A stretch of DNA of 21,678 nt, from UHGV virus genome UHGV-0168745; one strand, given 5' to 3'. A program made the position numbers and the translations under genes. Below the pieces are notes generated by a model. That model searched no databases. It saw nothing but the letters and a program-made list of their open reading frames with translations, and was not told where the DNA came from. This document shows, piece after piece, positions 3,274-20,532 of this stretch; position 1 is the stretch's first letter; every line of letters starts with the position of its first letter. The stretch comes from a virus.

Positions 3274-4077
3274 ATGGACAACTTAACACTGCGTTACAAC
3301 TGTGTAGCGTTAGCCGGTGTTAACGCTCCAGCCACGCTGGAGAAAGACGCGGATGGTTATTACCGCGTACTTTTGGGTGCTTTGAATATCTTTAACTCGG
3401 AAGGGATTTTCTACGCCTATAACGAGTCTAAACACGTATTCGAACGCTCTAACATTTTCATGCGTAAAGTGAAAGCAGGGAATCTGTTCGGGGAAGAAGA
3501 TCACCCGGCACCAGAGCCTGGTATGACCGAAGCGCAATGGATTGATCGCAACGAATGGATTGAGACGAAAAACGTCTGTATGCACATTCGTGAAGTTGAA
3601 GTGATTCCAACCGACCAAACCTGTAACGGGTTGCCGGTTATGGAAATCTGGGGCTGGATTAAACCGAACCGTGAACGTGGTCCGTACTTAGCAGAAGCAC
3701 TCGAAAACCCGCACCAGAATGTGTGTTTCTCTCTGCGCGCGATCGTACGTGAAGGTTATGTGGGTGGCGTGAAAACACGTCGCTTGGATCGTCTGGTGAC
3801 GTTTGACTGGGTTATCGAAGACGGGTTGCAGATTTGTAACAAATACTCTGCGATTCAGCGCGGTAGCAAAGTTGCTCAAGAATCCACCCGCGTCCTGCTG
3901 GACCGTCGTGTTTCTCTCCAGGCGCTGGAGGACATCCTGCGGAATCCTAACACGACATCTGCTATCGCGACTGAATCTCGTCGTGGTGAAGTTCGTGCGT
4001 TGGCGCAGGAGTACCTGGCAATTGCTAACAAGAAAACTAACCTGCGTGTTATGGGTTTAGGTAACGGGAAGTGGTAA
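3274..4077 (+). CDS. hypothetical protein, 267 aa
   Basis: ORF preceded by GGGGA Shine-Dalgarno and a triple TTTTAC repeat; stop TAA 4075-4077 abuts the next ATG at 4078. Confidence 0.65.
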   Translation: MDNLTLRYNCVALAGVNAPATLEKDADGYYRVLLGALNIFNSEGIFYAYNESKHVFERSNIFMRKVKAGNLFGEEDHPAPEPGMTEAQWIDRNEWIETKNVCMHIREVEVIPTDQTCNGLPVMEIWGWIKPNRERGPYLAEALENPHQNVCFSLRAIVREGYVGGVKTRRLDRLVTFDWVIEDGLQICNKYSAIQRGSKVAQESTRVLLDRRVSLQALEDILRNPNTTSAIATESRRGEVRALAQEYLAIANKKTNLRVMGLGNGKW

Positions 4078-11627: not shown

Positions 11628-12536
11628 ATGGCACTCAAAAACGCTTACAACGGTACTCCGTTTAATACCATAGACCTTACCCGCTTACACGCGGATTTGG
11701 AACTGGCTCGTAAAGTCAATCAGACCGTTGCACAGTCTGACGAGGTACATTACGTTATCGAAACTGCCGATGTAAAACCGTTCCCGTTACCGATCGTCAT
11801 CGGTGATGACGTGTACGTTGACGCACGAACTTTCACTACGCTGGATAAGAATGGCGTACTGAAAATCCGTAACCCCATTGAGCACCAATTACGTCTCGAC
11901 GAAGCACGTTGGGAATTAGTGTGGAAACGGAACAATGATAAGCTCGGTACATTAATGTCACGCATGTCTTATCACCATGAGATCTTCAGCAGGTGGATTA
12001 GCGATGCGATTGAACACACCTACGCACTTGCTCCATATCAAAGCGGTCAAGTCAAGGCACTCGCTGCCCTGTTTTCCGTAGGACAGTTCTACAACAACTT
12101 CGAAGATGAAGTTAAAATGCTGAGAATGCAGCAATCGTTAGAGCGTGAACTTCGCCTCGGACCACAGATTTTTGAAACCGTTACTGGCAACACAGAATTC
12201 CTGTTCCCGCGTAATATCGGTGAATTTGTCGAGATGGTCAAAGCCGCGGACATTACCGCACGCTTAAAAGATCTGAGTGTCGTTAGTCTGCAAGGTATGT
12301 TGGCGACAAGCCTGGGTAGCTTTATCAGCTACGACCGTCAGCTCGTTACCAGCGCTATCGAATATCCACCATCTCTGTTCGTCATTGTCCGCACGTGTTT
12401 AGAGAACGTGATATTTAACCGCTCCCGTTTAGGTGGCCTGATTAAGAAATGTGACGTGGCAAAACGTAAAGACGCGTTTATCATGGCATACGACACGCTG
12501 CTTAATCAAAACACCAAACCGATAAACATCCAGTAA
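11628..12536 (+). CDS. hypothetical protein, 302 aa
   Basis: ORF with TAAGGT 9 nt upstream; first gene of a + strand block that ends with the terminase. Confidence 0.6.
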   Translation: MALKNAYNGTPFNTIDLTRLHADLELARKVNQTVAQSDEVHYVIETADVKPFPLPIVIGDDVYVDARTFTTLDKNGVLKIRNPIEHQLRLDEARWELVWKRNNDKLGTLMSRMSYHHEIFSRWISDAIEHTYALAPYQSGQVKALAALFSVGQFYNNFEDEVKMLRMQQSLERELRLGPQIFETVTGNTEFLFPRNIGEFVEMVKAADITARLKDLSVVSLQGMLATSLGSFISYDRQLVTSAIEYPPSLFVIVRTCLENVIFNRSRLGGLIKKCDVAKRKDAFIMAYDTLLNQNTKPINIQ

Positions 12537-15065: not shown

Positions 15066-16706
15066 ATGGCCTTAACAACTGACATTATCAACAAGGATCG
15101 CGGGTTCCGTGTGTGGCGTCCTGAGGAACTCTATGCGCCCGAACGCCCTACCGGATACGTACCGAACCCGAAAGATCTGATCGTTAACGATATCACTTCA
15201 GGTTTCGATATCGTCGTAAGCGTTAACTACGCCAAACCGTCATGGGAAACCGAACCGTGGGGTGGTGTAGGGGTGGCTAACCAAGACGGACGTCTGAACG
15301 GCCACTACCCGCTACGCAGTGATAAATACCGCGTCTACGTGGATTCTACGAAGCTTCCAGCAACGATGGTGTTGGATAATGCACTCACCTTCGAAGGGCC
15401 GGATGTGGACGGCGTGCGTATTTTCCGGGGCAGTAAAGTCGACGACAGTGCTGAAATCCTCTCCGGCTATTACAAAGACGGTAAGTTAAAATACACTTAC
15501 CTGCCGGTACAGACGATTTCCGTCGAAGGTGCTGAACGTGTCGTTAAACAAACGCTACCGGGTGCCTGCCTAGCTGAGGTCGAAAACGGTGAAGAGTGTA
15601 TGTTCGCGGTTTACTCCGACGTCGGTAACGTGGTACAAATCGGTCATGCGCACATCATCAAAACGAATCTGGTGATGGCACAAGAGACGCCAGCGCGTAC
15701 GGTGTTAGGTATTAAGTTGGTGTCACCGTTCCTGGTGGACAACGACGGCACCACACTGACGCTACCGATCAACATGCCAATCGAATCCATACCGCTTTGG
15801 TGTGATGTGGTTTACAGTGACGGTACAAAACGTTTACCTATCGACCAGGCGCGTGTAAAATTCAATGGGCTGCGTAACGCAGGCTCTCACGACACGTTCT
15901 ATATCGCCTCTAACTCAGGTAATACGTTACCTTGTGTACTGAGCTATAAGCTGTCCAAAGGTGAAACTTACGGCGGTACCGATATCGTAGGCGATACCAT
16001 CGTGAAGAACTACACGGCGGTAACAGAACAGGTCGACGGTGCCTACAGCATGAAACTATTCGTTGTACCGAGATGGTTAGATGCAACGCGTGGTTATCGT
16101 CTGGACTTCTTGCTGTATAACCTGACGCGTGGTAAAGTTTACGATGCAACCGCACACGTGAACTACACCACAGGTACAACGTTTGACCCGTTACTGATGG
16201 GTGTTAAACAGCGTCTTAACGTCCAGGTCGATATCAGTAAGGTGGACAGCAAGTTCCGTGCGTTTATTCAGTCGCAGTCGTTTGCGATTACGCTGGTCAA
16301 TCCGGGTAACGAACTGAACTCGAACTTCATTCTGGAATACCTCCCAGACGGTATGAAGTACGGGGAAAACGTGTGGGCGGAGTTTAAATACTCTAACGTC
16401 AGCTATTCTGAAATCGACGTCAGCAACAAAGTGGCTTCGAAAGCAGAATGGCTGAAGTTGTTGTACGAACCGATTTATCCGTTGTACGATCGTCGTAATG
16501 AGTCTGAGCCACCTGAACCCACCCACTTCGAAATCCACGTCGGGGGTAAAGTCTACACCTACAGTGTCGATGAGTGGTTGGATAAAAAGGTTATCGATTA
16601 TCGCGTACCACTCGATGCACCGTTGGTGATTCGTTGGATACGCCGTACACCAACCGATACCTTAAACTTAGCCGCATCACCAATGCTGGCGCACCACATC
16701 GAATAA
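15066..16706 (+). CDS. hypothetical protein, 546 aa (possibly virion/morphogenesis)
   Basis: ORF starting 2 nt after the upstream stop (TAATCATG); AAGGG Shine-Dalgarno; no motif recognised. Confidence 0.65.
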   Translation: MALTTDIINKDRGFRVWRPEELYAPERPTGYVPNPKDLIVNDITSGFDIVVSVNYAKPSWETEPWGGVGVANQDGRLNGHYPLRSDKYRVYVDSTKLPATMVLDNALTFEGPDVDGVRIFRGSKVDDSAEILSGYYKDGKLKYTYLPVQTISVEGAERVVKQTLPGACLAEVENGEECMFAVYSDVGNVVQIGHAHIIKTNLVMAQETPARTVLGIKLVSPFLVDNDGTTLTLPINMPIESIPLWCDVVYSDGTKRLPIDQARVKFNGLRNAGSHDTFYIASNSGNTLPCVLSYKLSKGETYGGTDIVGDTIVKNYTAVTEQVDGAYSMKLFVVPRWLDATRGYRLDFLLYNLTRGKVYDATAHVNYTTGTTFDPLLMGVKQRLNVQVDISKVDSKFRAFIQSQSFAITLVNPGNELNSNFILEYLPDGMKYGENVWAEFKYSNVSYSEIDVSNKVASKAEWLKLLYEPIYPLYDRRNESEPPEPTHFEIHVGGKVYTYSVDEWLDKKVIDYRVPLDAPLVIRWIRRTPTDTLNLAASPMLAHHIE

Positions 16707-16715
16707 ACATAACAA

Positions 16716-16741
16716 GCCTCCTACCCGAAAGGGTAGGAGGC
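16716..16741 (+). other. perfect 11-bp hairpin with GNRA (GAAA) tetraloop upstream of the terminase start
   Basis: GCCTCCTACCC-gaaa-GGGTAGGAGGC read directly; no U-tract; the terminase Shine-Dalgarno GAGGAG (16742-16747) starts right after the 3' arm. Confidence 0.45.
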
Positions 16742-16752
16742 GAGGAGTCTGT

Positions 16753-18861
16753 ATGATATTGCGAGAATCGGATTGGCGTTATTATCCGGGCGCGATTGTG
16801 GACGATAAAACCACGAACAAATCGTTTATCAAGTTTGCCAATATCCTAAAAAAGTTAGGCGTAAAACACTGGTATATCCACCTCGCGTTACATAACCCTT
16901 TACTGCAAGGGGTCGATCCTTTTGACGAAAACCTAACGGATGAACAGAAGGCGTACATCACTATCGAGTGCGCCGAAAACCCCTGGTACTGGTTTAGAGA
17001 ATGTGTCAGGGTACCTGCGGACGGTATGAAATACGGTTCCCCGTTCCGTATCGACCGTGGTAACTTTTCAATGTATTGGATTTTCTTCAACAACATTGAC
17101 GCCGCAGTCGAGTTCCTACGTCAGCACGGTAAAACCGTCGGGATGAGTGGGTTACTGTTATGGTTAATCCGGTTTCTGGAAAACTCCCGTACGATTCTTA
17201 TCACAAAAGGCCCAGCCCTGCGTGAAGAAACCATTAACAAACTCAAACAGTTACGTAATGGTCTACCGCCGTATCTGTGGCCTGCACATCCCGATGACCC
17301 AGATAACCGTGAAACGTTTGCCTGCTTAGCGCAGGGTAATAAACTGATTACCGGTATCGGCCAAAACGACCCAGAATCTGCTAACGGTATCGGTCGTGGA
17401 CTGACCGCAGGACGTCTGTTCTCGGACGAAGGCCCCTTTACCAAAAATATCCATCACATCCTACCTGCTGCACTTGCATCAGGTACAGCAGCGCGTTTGA
17501 TTAACGAATCTGAAGGGGTTCCTTACGGTAACGTATTTGCAACAACACCTGGCGACTTAGCCACGGAAGAAGGCAAATACATGTACGAGCTGATGACGTC
17601 AGGGATTATGTGGGATGAACGTTACATTGATATCCCAACACGTAAACAGCTGATTGAGATTATTCGCTCGAACTCAACAGCAGAAGTCCCACGTATCATG
17701 TTCTACGTGAAATACAACCACCGTCAGCTCGGTACCACTGATGAACAGTTGGCAGCAATGATTGCGAACGCCAAAGGTACGCCTGATCAGATCCGTCGTG
17801 ACTTCGGGGGTGAATGGACAACCGGTGGTCTGAACAAGCCGTATTCGGTGGAAGATGCAGATCGTATGAATGCATCCCGTATGCGTGCCGTGTTTAAAGA
17901 TATTTCACCACAAAACTATGTTACCGACTGGTACTACACCGAAGCGGAAATGATGACGAAGCTCAAAGACCGTCACGTCATCGGCCTGGACACTTCCGAA
18001 GCGGTAGGTCGAGACGCGATCGCGATGTCCATCGTCAACGCCGTCACTGCGGAGTACGCCGGTAAGTTAACCGTTAACGAATCCAACGTTATCTCGTTCG
18101 CGATTCATTTAGCGGATTTTATGGTGCGATATCCTAACACGGTACTGATCCTGGAACGACGTTCTACGGGCTCGTCTGTGGCTGATGCAATTATCTTACA
18201 GCTTCAGAGTCGAGTGACAGATTTACATCGTAGATTGTTTGTGCGAATCACTCAGGACTACTCACGAACGGACGATCTCTACAAAGAGTATCACCGTGGC
18301 CCTATTGGTAGTGCCGAGAAGTTCTGGAACAAATTCCGCAAATACATCGGTTTCTCTACTGACCAGGAAAAACGTCGTAAACTGTACGGTGAGGTATTCA
18401 CTACAGCGTTGCGCTTATCCGCGGACAAACTCCGTTGCGGAGAACTCATCGACCAAATACTTAACCTCGTGGAGAAAAATGGTCGTATTGACCACAAAGC
18501 TTCAGGTCACGATGACCTCGTGATTTCTTGGTTACTTGCAATGTGGTTATTGCTGTTTGGGAATAACTTAGGGCATTACGAAATCAACAACAGTCGTTTG
18601 ATGATGCGTAATAGAAACTTAGCGGAGAATCGAGAAGGGGTGGATGAAGAGTTACAGCTCGAGGAGGAAGCGCGACAGCAGGAACTGATGGGGGAAATTG
18701 AGCGTCTTGTACGAACCACCAACGGGTTATTAGACCCGATTCAAGCAATGGCTGCTCGTAACCGTCTCCAGTCCCTCATTGCTCAACTTAACACTGATAC
18801 ACAAAACGTGGCGTCAATGGAAAGCTTGAGAGAGCTTATCCAGCGTCAGAGGATGAAGTGA
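16753..18861 (+). CDS. terL: terminase large subunit (T4 gp17-type ATPase/nuclease), 702 aa
   Basis: Deviant Walker A FLRQHGKT (residues about 121-128) resembles T4 gp17 SRQLGKT; C-terminal GHDDLVISWLLA resembles the T4 gp17 nuclease-domain motif (recalled as GYHDDLVMSLVIF). Extra C-terminal coiled-coil-like segment (EELQLEEEARQQELMGEIERL). Confidence 0.8.
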   Translation: MILRESDWRYYPGAIVDDKTTNKSFIKFANILKKLGVKHWYIHLALHNPLLQGVDPFDENLTDEQKAYITIECAENPWYWFRECVRVPADGMKYGSPFRIDRGNFSMYWIFFNNIDAAVEFLRQHGKTVGMSGLLLWLIRFLENSRTILITKGPALREETINKLKQLRNGLPPYLWPAHPDDPDNRETFACLAQGNKLITGIGQNDPESANGIGRGLTAGRLFSDEGPFTKNIHHILPAALASGTAARLINESEGVPYGNVFATTPGDLATEEGKYMYELMTSGIMWDERYIDIPTRKQLIEIIRSNSTAEVPRIMFYVKYNHRQLGTTDEQLAAMIANAKGTPDQIRRDFGGEWTTGGLNKPYSVEDADRMNASRMRAVFKDISPQNYVTDWYYTEAEMMTKLKDRHVIGLDTSEAVGRDAIAMSIVNAVTAEYAGKLTVNESNVISFAIHLADFMVRYPNTVLILERRSTGSSVADAIILQLQSRVTDLHRRLFVRITQDYSRTDDLYKEYHRGPIGSAEKFWNKFRKYIGFSTDQEKRRKLYGEVFTTALRLSADKLRCGELIDQILNLVEKNGRIDHKASGHDDLVISWLLAMWLLLFGNNLGHYEINNSRLMMRNRNLAENREGVDEELQLEEEARQQELMGEIERLVRTTNGLLDPIQAMAARNRLQSLIAQLNTDTQNVASMESLRELIQRQRMK

Positions 18862-19097
18862 TGGCTCCAATTTACTATTTGCTCGTGTTCTTTTCGTGGA
18901 TCGCGACGTATAAAATGATCCGAGAGAGTTACCAAGCGATAAAGGACTACGGTCGAACGCAAGGAATTCCTTTACGAAAAACACGATACGCGCAAGCATT
19001 GGCAGTATTTGGACTCATGATTGCGGGGACGTCAACCACGTACGCGCTAAACATGGTCTACTCGATACACCTCCTGGTAATGTCCGGGGCCCATTGA
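18861..19097 (+). CDS. small membrane protein, 78 aa, two predicted transmembrane segments; start overlaps terminase stop (TGATG)
   Basis: ATG 18861 overlaps the terL stop TGA 18859-18861; GAGGA 7 nt upstream; hydrophobic stretches PIYYLLVFFSWIATY and ALAVFGLMIAGTSTTYALNMVYSIHLLVM separated by a charged loop. Confidence 0.4.
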   Translation: MAPIYYLLVFFSWIATYKMIRESYQAIKDYGRTQGIPLRKTRYAQALAVFGLMIAGTSTTYALNMVYSIHLLVMSGAH

Positions 19098-19114
19098 AAT
19101 CTGTTAAACTAAAC

Positions 19115-19157
19115 TAGCCAGTAACCCGTTCGGGTTACTGGCTAACTCTTATTTTTT
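19115..19157. terminator. intrinsic terminator between convergent genes (13-bp stem TAGCCAGTAACCC / GGGTTACTGGCTA, loop gttc, then CTTATTTTTTATTT)
   Basis: Perfect inverted repeat 19115-19127 / 19132-19144; T-rich tract on + strand overlaps the stop codon of the - strand gene. Confidence 0.55.
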
Positions 19158-20532
19158 ATTTCTGCAACGAACGAATCAAGAAATACAACAGCAGCGCATT
19201 GCGTAATGCGGCTAATGCCGATTCGTGTCGGATATGAGTTTCTTTTGCTGCGAGTTTTTCAATTCGTGAGCGTAAAGATAACACATACGGGTTCGGCGAT
19301 TTAGACGCCTGATACAACGCACGCATACGCTGTAATACCGTTACCGCATCGTTAAAGTTAATGCGGTTAGTGACGATTTCATCGAACGCATGAGACAACG
19401 TGTCTTCCATGATGCTGTTGATTTCATCACGTTTCTTACCAATCGGTAATCCTGCGATGTACGCCAGGAGCGTTTTAAGGGCAGCGGGTGATGCTTTAGG
19501 CACCATCTCCAACACCACACGGGCCAGTTCCTCTTTGTACAGATTGTTAATGTCGTAAGACGCATCAAACAAATTCTGTTTTGCGATTTCCAACGCGCCG
19601 ACCTTGTCACGAATCACAGACTGACCGTCTAACTCGATACGCGCAGATTGGCTCACCACACGGGCGTTCTCACGGCGTACGCGGTCGAGCACCGCGTAAT
19701 AGTCCTTCACAGTTTGTTTGGTACGTGTGTTCAAATCCGTGATATAACGCAGAACCAGATCGGGGGTATCAAAACGTTTTACCGCGTCGTAGTTCGGGTA
19801 TTCCGGGGAACAGAAATAGGTTGAGCGTTCTGCCATATGCAGACCCCAGTTCCCCAAACGCCGAATATCGAACTTCATCGACAACATTGAATACGCAGCT
19901 TCTGCGGCAGGTAGGTCAACCGGTTTCGGAAAGAAGTGATAGTAGATACTCGAGTAGAATTTAAACTGGAGTATCGTCACTAAGTCAATTGCTGCGGCGT
20001 GGATTTCTTTGTCGCCAAACTTCGGAATCATCAGATGCAGTAAATACACAATCGTGAGGTTGTAGGTGTCCCCAGCAACCTGCCAATCGGTATTAATCGA
20101 CTGAGATTCTTTAATCAGTTCTGACAGATAGTCTTCGTCAACGTTGATAACTTCGTCGAACAGACGATTACGGTCGGAATCGAAAAAACGAATGCTCTGA
20201 ACCCCGAGTAAGTTAGACCCTAACCATTCCACGTTCCCTTCTCGGGAAAGCACGCCACTCACATAGTGGCGAATTTTAGAGGCCAGTTTTCGGTCTACGG
20301 TGACACGATTAAATACGCTGTCGAACGCTTTACGTAGGCTGTCGTCACGACGGGATTCGTGCGCAACACCCAGCCCCATCGGGACGTAACCGCCGAAGCC
20401 ATAATCGTAATACAAACCAGGGTTGTGGGATTCGGTATCGAAGAACGGATCACGGCCGAACGATTCCTGAGCGACCCGCGTTCCGGCTTTCTGGTAGCAG
20501 CCGGATGTAAAATCATAAACCAGTTCAGCCAT
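19156..20532 (-). CDS. hypothetical protein, 458 aa
   Basis: Long - strand ORF with GAGG 5-9 nt upstream of ATG; no catalytic motif recognised. Confidence 0.6.
   Translation of the reverse strand: MAELVYDFTSGCYQKAGTRVAQESFGRDPFFDTESHNPGLYYDYGFGGYVPMGLGVAHESRRDDSLRKAFDSVFNRVTVDRKLASKIRHYVSGVLSREGNVEWLGSNLLGVQSIRFFDSDRNRLFDEVINVDEDYLSELIKESQSINTDWQVAGDTYNLTIVYLLHLMIPKFGDKEIHAAAIDLVTILQFKFYSSIYYHFFPKPVDLPAAEAAYSMLSMKFDIRRLGNWGLHMAERSTYFCSPEYPNYDAVKRFDTPDLVLRYITDLNTRTKQTVKDYYAVLDRVRRENARVVSQSARIELDGQSVIRDKVGALEIAKQNLFDASYDINNLYKEELARVVLEMVPKASPAALKTLLAYIAGLPIGKKRDEINSIMEDTLSHAFDEIVTNRINFNDAVTVLQRMRALYQASKSPNPYVLSLRSRIEKLAAKETHIRHESALAALRNALLLYFLIRSLQK

Follow-up and report, generated by a model that had tools for sequence, protein, structure and literature searches.

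The closest described relatives of the gene examined in this study are the large terminase subunits (TerL) of two phiKZ-related jumbo phages, SPN3US gp260 (YP_009153554, 703 aa) and Erwinia phage Asesino gp281 (YP_009290899, 702 aa). SPN3US gp260 has been reported as a TerL homologous to T4 gp17 that is absent from virions, and headful packaging was inferred for SPN3US (PMC5694885). In the Chimalliviridae, TerL is a core gene of 'Block 7', together with virion genes (bioRxiv 10.1101/2023.02.24.529968). T4 gp17 (3CPE, 3EZK, 2O0H) comprises an ATPase and an RNase H-like nuclease, a two-domain build shared by the protein described below. The T4 small-terminase gene 16 lies immediately upstream of gene 17 and overlaps it.

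The window analysed here is the whole 21,678-nt stretch of a virus genome (UHGV-0168745). It carries an ORF whose product is very probably the TerL of an SPN3US/Asesino-like, phiKZ-related jumbo phage (Chimalliviridae), with an N-terminal ATPase and a C-terminal nuclease. Neither the TerL nor its helical C-terminal tail is unusual; both occur across the family, and the protein is already in the literature. The gene and its start are as follows.

16753–18861, plus strand: TerL ORF, with ATG at 16753 and TGA ending at 18861 (702 aa plus stop)
16742–16747, plus strand: Shine-Dalgarno sequence GAGGAG, 5 nt before the TerL ATG, read from the sequence
16753–17097, plus strand: N-terminal region, aa 1–115, upstream of the part alignable to T4 gp17

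The ORF is a genuine gene. The N-terminus M-I-L was nearly invariant across 51 homologs, which indicates that the start codon is correct, and an AGGAG or GGAG counterpart of the Shine-Dalgarno sequence was found in 4/4 relatives compared. The segment aa 1–115 was the best conserved part of the protein against distant family members, with 51% identity.

The TerL showed 81% identity to SPN3US gp260 over the full length and 85% to Asesino gp281 (80.8% and 84.8% by tblastn), and the two genes differed from it by sequence divergence only (76–77% nucleotide identity). Both relatives have the same tail, ending ...NVASMESLKELIQRQRMK. Comparison with phiKZ-like terminases, as proposed in the preliminary description, gave 34.1% identity over residues 1–702 with the phiKZ-type TerL of Pseudomonas phage PA7 (gp011, 717 aa; tblastn); all catalytic motifs were shared and the helical tail was alignable. 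In the phiKZ type, as in many other clades, there is additionally a basic stretch and an aromatic C-terminus (...RYSRNSWY); the SPN3US-like clade has neither. The protein also aligned over its first ~610 residues with the TerLs of RAY, RSL2, 2050HW, and pEt-SU, which are of comparable length. By this orthology and by its position among virion structural genes, it fits Block 7 of the Chimalliviridae core genome. The ORFs scanned in the 21.7-kb window yielded no match to chimallin (ChmA). The tblastn search matched 339 phage records, most of which, among the matches listed, were annotated as large terminase. PHROG 2 'terminase large subunit' was matched with E = 8.9e-64 (217.5 bits), and phrog_32359 with E = 3.8e-33.

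The preliminary description had named a T4 gp17-type terminase, and this was borne out by profile, structural, and PHROG 2 matches together with the literature on SPN3US gp260. Identity to T4 gp17 was only about 17%, and a PDB search with the single sequence gave marginal similarity to gp17 (E = 0.0057), so that a family profile was needed. With the family profile, gp17 was the best PDB match in hmmsearch (E = 5.8e-10), and hhalign aligned it with a probability of 97.3% (E = 1.7e-11, 394 columns), pairing aa 121–619 with gp17 160–573 and placing every catalytic motif in register. The AlphaFold2 (AF2) model of the protein had a pLDDT of 87.3 and a pTM of 0.81. In Foldseek, the best solved match of this model was T4 gp17 (3CPE, E = 3.3e-19); the ATPase domain matched 2o0h with a TM of 0.56, and the nuclease domain matched RB49 gp17 (3c6a) with a TM of 0.69.

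Pfam and NCBIfam scans returned no family at E ≤ 1, and the TerL homologs had no precomputed Pfam domain. Failure of profile searches to align the terminase motifs had been named beforehand as grounds for rejecting the identification; Pfam and NCBIfam did fail, but the family-profile and structure methods succeeded. The silence of the two databases is a gap in their models and no argument against a TerL. It is one of two points that could be cited for another kind of ATPase-nuclease, such as a repair or helicase-nuclease enzyme, the second being a relative in Aeromonas phage D3 annotated as 'DNA helicase or terminase large subunit'. We consider that identity extremely improbable. Foldseek ranks 1–41 in the PDB were large terminases throughout, with DEAD-box helicases appearing only from E ~2e-3. 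The gene was single-copy per phage record among the matches listed, stands amid virion genes, and is part of the core genome, and no other scanned ORF of the window matched a terminase family.

The catalytic motifs were assigned by alignment to T4 gp17 as follows.

17119–17136, plus strand: Walker A (P-loop) RQHGKT, aa 123–128, aligned to T4 SRQLGKT 161–167
17425–17430, plus strand: Walker B D225 and catalytic E226 (RLFSDE), aligned to T4 MIYIDE 251–256 (D255/E256)
17542–17550, plus strand: coupling (C) motif T264-T265-P266, aligned to T4 TTTP 285–288
17968–18588, plus strand: RNase H-like nuclease domain, ~aa 406–612, from the profile alignment, AF2 model, and Foldseek
17989–17991, plus strand: nuclease Asp D413 (GLDTSE), aligned to T4 LDCSE
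18154–18156, plus strand: nuclease Glu E468 (ILERRSTG), aligned to T4 YIELNSTG
18508–18528, plus strand: HDDLVIS, aa 586–592, containing nuclease Asp D587, aligned to T4 HDDLVMS 540–546

The RQHGKT and HDDLVIS motifs, from which the terminase had originally been recognised, were thus located at aa 123–128 and 586–592, in register with T4. The motifs common to the two proteins can be written as RQxGKT, hhhhDE, TT(T/P), LDxSE, xxExxSTG, and HDDLV(I/M)S. In the 51 homologs (down to 35% identity), R123, Q124, G126, and K127 of the P-loop were invariant, as were D225, E226, T265, D413, E468, and D587, and T264 was nearly so. The N-terminal part is an ASCE ATPase with a T4-type P-loop, Walker B, catalytic Glu, and coupling motif. 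The C-terminal part is an RNase H-like nuclease whose acidic triad consists of D413, E468, and D587, the counterparts of D401, E458, and D542 in T4 gp17.

The TerL (702 aa) is longer than T4 gp17 (610 aa), as stated in the preliminary description, with a net excess of 92 aa. The attribution of this excess to the tail held for about half of it: the tail contributes 47/92 extra residues, and the remainder is supplied by insertions in the ATPase and nuclease domains. By motif positions, the N-terminus is 39 aa shorter than that of T4 gp17, and there are insertions of 18 aa in the ATPase core, 33 aa in the stretch from the coupling motif to the first nuclease Asp, and 35 aa inside the nuclease domain, with a difference of −2 between D413 and E468. 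The insertion of ~35 aa, between E468 and D587, is helical. After the HDD motif there are 116 residues in the TerL and 70 in T4, and this region was unalignable to T4 gp17 beyond aa 619.

The coordinates of the tail are as follows.

18589–18858, plus strand: C-terminal helical tail, aa 613–702, from AF2 models, conserved seams, and dN/dS
18646–18786, plus strand: central helix-turn-helix of the tail
18808–18855, plus strand: last helix of the tail

The tail helices cover aa 614–624, 632–658, 662–678, and 686–701. The enrichment in E, Q, and R noticed earlier was confirmed by composition: aa 611–702 contain 13% E, 13% R, 9.8% Q, 9.8% N, and 14% L, while E, R, and Q make up 6.1%, 6.9%, and 2.6% elsewhere in the protein. 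The heptad-like character was upheld. The tail is helical, the hydrophobic periodicity of helix 632–658 is maximal at 3.5 residues, and hydrophobic seams with 3–4 spacing (645/649/652/656, 668/672/675/679, and 686/689/692/696) are kept across the family despite low sequence identity. However, the helices are short and each seam spans only about two heptads, which suggests a bundle or hairpin of short helices more than a long coiled coil. Structure prediction, which had been suggested for this extension, gave a helix-turn-helix with pLDDT 82–86 plus two low-confidence helices; in the full-length model, the central hairpin had pLDDT 70–83 and the last helix <50. Found throughout the family, this appendage consists of short amphipathic helices grouped about a helix-turn-helix. 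It was present in every Gram-negative chimallivirus TerL checked, with 116–144 aa after the HDD motif. The tail is under purifying selection, with a dN/dS of 0.09 against 0.03 for the whole gene. A shorter helical C-terminal region, 92 aa long, follows the HDD motif in the TerL of Staphylococcus phage SA1, where the adjacent gene bears an AR9-like annotation.

The last helix showed 76% identity in the close SPN3US-like clade and 22% in distant clades. From this clade-specific conservation and the pLDDT below 50, we infer that the last helix may fold on a clade-specific partner. When the tail was modelled alone, Foldseek found nothing significant in the PDB (best E = 1.2); the tail profile against PDB sequences gave only weak, non-significant coiled-coil matches (GCN4 chimeras, ING4), and for 30 tails scanned with Pfam the only matches were weak and scattered over coiled-coil families. 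A phmmer search of 1.84 billion representative proteins returned three matches and no stand-alone or re-used tail module at this sensitivity; two of the three were TerL C-terminal fragments from internal Met codons, and the third was a spurious leucine-rich-repeat protein. Across the Foldseek, PDB profile, Pfam, and phmmer searches, there was no significant match indicating a partner and no tail homolog outside TerL, T4 small terminase included. Similarity to the tails of other terminases was likewise found in neither Foldseek nor the PDB profile search.

The surroundings of the gene contain the following features.

16716–16741, plus strand: stem-loop with an 11-bp stem and a GAAA loop, in the spacer between TerL and the 546-aa virion-protein gene upstream of it
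18861–19097, plus strand: 78-aa ORF matching phrog_8972 (E = 1.6e-16), whose ATG overlaps the TerL TGA by 1 nt (TGATG)
19115–19144, no strand assigned: stem-loop of 13 bp where the 78-aa ORF and the 458-aa minus-strand gene converge

The upstream neighbour is a virion structural protein (546 aa, phrog_3430). As in Asesino, SPN3US, and PA7, the gene order is sheath, PhiKZ gp28-type vertex protein (PF25614), two virion proteins, and TerL. The downstream gene differs in PA7, whereas Asesino (gp282) and SPN3US have a homolog of the 78-aa ORF in the same arrangement, including the 1-nt overlap. This start/stop overlap suggests that the 78-aa ORF is probably translationally coupled to TerL. Its product has two hydrophobic segments that, judged by eye, are probably membrane-spanning. 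The upstream stem-loop has a folding energy of −25.5 kcal/mol (z = −5.75; 0/200 shuffles fold as well), and in an alignment with Asesino and SPN3US the pairing survives base changes on both arms. An SD-like GGAGG lies in the 3′ arm. The element is probably a transcript 3′-end or stability element. The downstream stem-loop (−23.9 kcal/mol, z = −7.87) is terminator-like for both strands.

The preliminary description saw no small-terminase gene immediately upstream, and the wider comparison agreed. No small-terminase family was matched by the larger ORFs of the window in PHROGs or Pfam, nor was one found at the syntenic position in Asesino, SPN3US, or PA7. Where T4 has gene 16 adjoining gene 17, the TerL of the window is preceded by a virion-protein gene; this is a trait of genome organisation and not of the enzyme. 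A small terminase, if any, would be encoded elsewhere in the genome. In our literature search for a chimallivirus small terminase, the single mention was an unsupported one, PCH45 gp77 (bioRxiv 10.64898/2025.12.19.695335).

With no small-terminase gene adjoining TerL, the tail might replace or recruit one, either as a fused T4 gp16-like helical hairpin or as a docking site for a small terminase encoded at a distance. T4-type small terminases do have a helical-hairpin oligomerisation core (PMC9611059; PMC9958956), and a T6 small-terminase chain appeared among the non-significant fold matches of the tail (rank 47, E = 6.8). We regard such a role as very unlikely, as the Pfam scan of the 30 tails contained no small-terminase family and a separate, essential 'small terminase', the PCH45 gp77 mentioned above, has been reported in a chimallivirus. 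The fused T4 gp16-like form was rejected, since hhalign of the tail profile against T4 gp16 gave a probability of 0.45%.

By homology to T4 gp17, a TerL ring would dock on the portal of the empty prohead, drive concatemeric DNA into the head by ATP hydrolysis, and cut the DNA once the head is full, which would be headful packaging. We speculate that the tail, and the last helix especially, may serve as an arm by which the nuclease domain is docked to the portal or prohead; we hold this tentatively, at somewhat short of even chances, by analogy with other phages. In other TerLs, the portal or procapsid is the presumed binding site of the C-terminal tail (PMC5389665), and portal- or prohead-binding tails are described for lambda gpA and T3 gp19 (cited in PMC10643120). 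These two tails are likewise flexible extensions after the nuclease domain, a likeness that is one of functional analogy only. For T4, it was alternatively proposed that the ATPase domain at the N-terminus touches the portal (PMC5389665), so portal docking through the tail is no certainty for an enzyme of the T4 type.

The tail could instead act inside the motor, joining neighbouring TerL subunits in the ring, or folding back on the nuclease domain so that it does not cut before the head has filled. Heptad-like seams on short amphipathic helices are a usual sign of self-association, the weak profile matches (GCN4 chimeras, ING4) are coiled-coil oligomerisation domains, and the central hairpin is moderately confident in the full-length model. 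Steric-block control of the nuclease by the tail has also been proposed for other TerLs (PMC5389665). We think this action fairly unlikely, because the seams extend over only about two heptads, the monomer model leaves the last helix unstructured, and its clade-specific conservation better fits a co-evolving external partner than the conserved catalytic body.

The tail could also be an adaptation to the phage nucleus, given that it occurs in each Gram-negative chimallivirus TerL examined but is missing from T4; by it, TerL would be targeted to or through the chimallin shell and feed DNA to the capsids outside. Capsids dock on the nuclear shell, and the route of the terminase to the DNA is not described (PMC10643120; PMC12908238). 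Our literature search found nothing on terminase localisation or tail function in nucleus-forming phages. Such targeting is improbable in our view: the SA1 protein, from a phage that may not form a nucleus, also has a helical C-terminal region, the shell adaptor ChmB is confined to Pseudomonas phages (PMC10643120) whereas the tail is family-wide, and by phmmer the tail sequence was shared with no other protein, which argues against a common import tag. It is similarly doubtful that the tail serves as an adaptor for a T4-type motor at the chimallin shell, with the clade-specific and strongly constrained last helix (aa 681–702) coupling TerL to the portal or a shell pore. If it did, capsids docked outside could receive DNA from the phage nucleus.

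What was identified, correctly, is a well-known and essential enzyme from a phage family already known, and the finding carries little scientific weight in itself. NCBI copies of the exact protein appeared only as 'hypothetical protein' in Salmonella assemblies. More broadly, for want of a Pfam or NCBIfam model of the clade, hundreds of Salmonella, E. coli, and Shigella assemblies carry the TerL under the label 'hypothetical', and the same label occurs in ~222-kb records deposited as plasmids. A dedicated model of this TerL clade would flag these jumbo-phage genomes. The literature search found no biochemical or genetic test of this TerL or its tail, and the literature examined did not address how terminase and portal engage during packaging at the phage nucleus. 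SPN3US has an amber-mutant system, and the conserved tail offers a genetically tractable handle on terminase-portal engagement at the phage nucleus.

The large terminase (TerL) ORF comprised 702 codons on the + strand (16753-18861), and a Shine-Dalgarno sequence (GAGGAG) was read with the ATG 5 nt downstream. The start codon is correct, since the Met-Ile-Leu N-terminus was nearly invariant among 51 homologs. Residues 123-128 were RQHGKT and residues 586-592 were HDDLVIS. The T4 large terminase gp17 (NC_000866, 610 aa) has SRQLGKT at 161-167 and HDDLVMS at 540-546. In the last 92 aa of TerL, E and R each made up 13%, Q and N each 9.8%, and L 14%; in the rest of the protein, E, R and Q made up 6.1%, 6.9% and 2.6%, respectively. 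The ORF, motifs, E/Q/R-rich tail and greater length than gp17 reported in the preliminary description are therefore all present in the sequence.

TerL was assigned to phrog_2 'terminase large subunit' (PHROGs, E = 8.9e-64). A single-sequence PDB search with TerL found gp17 at E = 0.0057 only, while a family profile of 27 sequences found it at 5.8e-10. The hhalign comparison of the family profile with gp17 gave a probability of 97.3% (E = 1.7e-11), aligning TerL 121-619 with gp17 160-573, and every catalytic motif was in register.

Catalytic motifs of TerL and T4 gp17
P-loop lysine: TerL K127; gp17 K166
Walker B / catalytic Glu: TerL D225/E226; gp17 D255/E256
Coupling motif: TerL T264-T265; gp17 T285-T287
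Nuclease triad: TerL D413, E468, D587; gp17 D401, E458, D542

K127, D225, E226, T265, D413, E468 and D587 were invariant in the 51 homologs (down to 35% identity), and T264 nearly so. The AlphaFold2 model built from the family alignment was confident (pLDDT 87.3, pTM 0.81). Its top solved-structure match in Foldseek was T4 gp17 (3CPE, E = 3.3e-19), followed by T7, HK97, D6E, Sf6, P74-26 and herpesvirus terminases. By domain, the gp17 ATPase domain matched with TM 0.56 and the RB49 nuclease domain with TM 0.69. These profile, motif-register and structural matches support the earlier call of a T4 gp17-type large terminase. The preliminary description had named failing profile searches as contrary evidence. 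Such failure was confined to Pfam and NCBIfam, which gave no match even at E <= 1 and have no model able to detect this clade at that threshold; hhalign and the family profile did align the motifs. Precomputed Pfam domains were also absent from 120/120 listed TerL homologs. Residues 1-115 (16753-17097), outside the region aligned with gp17, were the most conserved among distant members (51% identity; ATPase domain 46%, nuclease domain 41%).

From the motif positions, the net excess of TerL over gp17 was 92 residues.

Length differences by region, TerL relative to T4 gp17
Before the P-loop: -39 aa
P-loop to Walker B: +9 aa
Walker B to coupling motif: +9 aa
From the coupling motif to the first Asp of the nuclease (linker and ATPase subdomain II): +33 aa
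First nuclease Asp to catalytic Glu: -2 aa
Within the nuclease domain, between E468 and D587 (modelled as a helical insertion): +35 aa
After the last catalytic Asp: +47 aa

The extra length was thus confirmed, but the tail accounts for about half of it (+47 of 92) and is not its whole source. The residues following HDD of the nuclease numbered 116 in this window, 124 in PA7, 144 in RAY, 136 in RSL2, 118 in 2050HW, 132 in pEt-SU, 92 in Staphylococcus phage SA1 and 70 in T4. The tail was found in every Gram-negative chimallivirus TerL examined. It is a family trait, whose discussion we did not find in the papers searched.

The full-length and tail-only models agreed on helices at 614-624, 632-658, 662-678 and 686-701. 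Only the central helix-turn-helix (632-678) was reasonably confident (pLDDT 70-83 in context, 82-86 alone), and the last helix was below 50 in the full-length model. Hydrophobic seams at 645/649/652/656, 668/672/675/679 and 686/689/692/696 were kept across the 51 homologs, and the first long helix showed a periodicity peak of 3.5 residues. The coiled-coil-like character proposed earlier holds for helicity and periodicity, but each seam is only about two heptads long; the tail appears to consist of several short amphipathic helices rather than one long coiled coil.

Tail identity among distant members was low (22-24%, against 41-46% for the catalytic domains). In comparisons with the relatives from E. 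coli 98232 and Enterobacter ludwigii, dN/dS was 0.09 for the tail, 0.03 for the whole gene and 0.025-0.03 for the catalytic domains, and purifying selection acts on the tail. The last 22 residues had 76% identity within the SPN3US-like clade, the level of the catalytic core, and 22% between clades. The SPN3US-like TerLs end in ...QRQRMK. Other TerL tails (P0075, P0077, P0090, P0093, PA7, RAY, RSL2, 2050HW, pEt-SU) run on through a basic stretch to an aromatic end; the C-terminal residues outside the clade were SWY, GFF, TVY, NYY, NRF, TFA, EWH, SWA and NYA. This C-terminus may be a docking peg.

Searches with the tail returned no informative homolog. Foldseek against PDB gave nothing significant (best E = 1.2), and neither a comparison of the tail profile with PDB sequences nor scanning 30 tails with Pfam yielded more than generic coiled-coil noise. 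With phmmer, 1.84 billion representative proteins gave two C-terminal TerL fragments and a spurious hit to a leucine-rich-repeat protein.

The domain architecture and catalytic residues of TerL are directly established. By analogy with T4 (PMC9958956) and from the SPN3US literature (PMC5694885), a TerL ring would assemble on the portal, drive DNA translocation with ATP and make the headful cut. The kept seams, together with a last helix that is clade-specific yet tightly constrained and of low monomer confidence, fit a segment folding on a co-evolving partner. C-terminal tails of TerLs are held to bind portal or procapsid (PMC5389665), and we tentatively favour portal docking as the role of the tail. 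Self-association or nuclease gating by the tail is rather unlikely. Chimallivirus capsids dock on the nuclear shell during packaging (PMC10643120). The tail could be an adaptor that lets the motor package DNA at the phage nucleus; we consider this improbable. The literature searched (PMC10643120, PMC12908238, bioRxiv 10.1101/2023.02.24.529968) does not state the location or route of TerL during packaging. A small-terminase-related role is very improbable, as hhalign of the tail profile with the T4 small terminase gp16 gave a probability of only 0.45%. The tail is a modest structural feature, and these roles are proposed.

No window ORF matched a small-terminase family (PHROGs, Pfam), and the regions of Asesino, SPN3US and PA7 that are syntenic with it have no such gene annotated, which agrees with the earlier remark that none is recognisable immediately upstream. 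In T4, by contrast, gene 16 overlaps gene 17. The sole chimallivirus small-terminase mention found was PCH45 gp77, reported as essential; it lies far from TerL (gp159), and its annotation basis is not given (bioRxiv 10.64898/2025.12.19.695335).

Genes of the window, with those around TerL in order
Minus strand, tail sheath
11628-12536, PhiKZ gp28-type vertex-binding protein (PF25614, E = 1.3e-57)
838-aa virion protein, then 546-aa virion protein
16753-18861, + strand, TerL
18861-19097, + strand, 78-aa ORF with two hydrophobic segments (phrog_8972)
Minus strand, convergent 458-aa gene
Elsewhere: 5-697, C-terminal end of the phage multisubunit RNA polymerase beta subunit (phrog_3148)
Elsewhere: 3274-4077, prohead maturation protease (phrog_3014)

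The gene order around TerL was the same in Asesino and SPN3US. Its upstream part was also found in PA7 (phiKZ-type), whereas the downstream gene differs there. The TerL stop codon is overlapped by the ATG of the 78-aa ORF (TGATG), with the same 1-nt overlap in Asesino (gp282) and SPN3US; the hydrophobic segments, judged by eye, are probably membrane-spanning.

A stem-loop that separates TerL from the virion-protein gene upstream (16716-16741; -25.5 kcal/mol, z = -5.75) has a perfect 11-bp stem and a GAAA tetraloop. In relatives the stem changes on both arms with pairing kept, and the loop is GCAA in the 'plasmid' relatives and UUCG in Asesino and SPN3US. In its 3' arm, GGAGG resembles an SD and shortly precedes the real one; the + strand has no T-run. 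A second stem-loop (19115-19144; 13 bp, -23.9 kcal/mol, z = -7.87), between the 78-aa ORF and the 458-aa gene, looks like a bidirectional terminator. Sigma-70-like promoter matches in 16400-19400 numbered 0 on both strands, against 4.0 +/- 1.9 expected from shuffles; this would be compatible with RNA polymerases of the phage itself transcribing the region.

The tblastn search of 50,697 phage records with TerL gave matches in 339, with at least 80% protein coverage in 297. The nearest relative was Erwinia phage Asesino gp281 (84.8%), followed by SPN3US-type Salmonella phages (80.8%) and phiKZ-type phages such as PA7 (34% over residues 1-702). Nucleotide identity to any deposited phage was only 76-77%. 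The match was split in two, about 0.8-1 kb apart, in several other jumbo phages, namely KpGz_1, USC-1, Aphrodite1, BUCTxx100, MIZ-Pa99, Aeromonas D3 and PBS1, and in PBS1 a hypothetical gene is annotated between two terminase CDSs. Such splits suggest that an intron, intein or homing endonuclease interrupts the gene; in the window it is uninterrupted.

The TerL identification is correct, yet already known, because SPN3US gp260 is a published large terminase homologous to T4 gp17 (PMC5694885, PMC5105663), TerL is among the Chimalliviridae core genes (bioRxiv 10.1101/2023.02.24.529968; PMC12908238), and the exact protein is in NCBI. It is there only as 'hypothetical protein [Salmonella enterica]' (e.g. 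EDC4983387.1, UYL17110.1), a PGAP label given because the Pfam and NCBIfam models miss this clade. The 90% cluster of TerL has 212 member sequences, and its proteins were found on hundreds of 223-249 kb contigs assembled from isolates of Salmonella, E. coli and Shigella. E. coli 98232 and Enterobacter ludwigii have relatives with 87% nucleotide identity, deposited as circular 'plasmids' of ~222 kb. In deposited records, the TerL locus lies at NZ_CP173450.1 156357-158465 and NZ_CP134650.1 81456-83564. This jumbo-phage lineage seems to accompany bacterial isolates, perhaps as a carrier-state or pseudolysogenic phage, and to go unrecognised.
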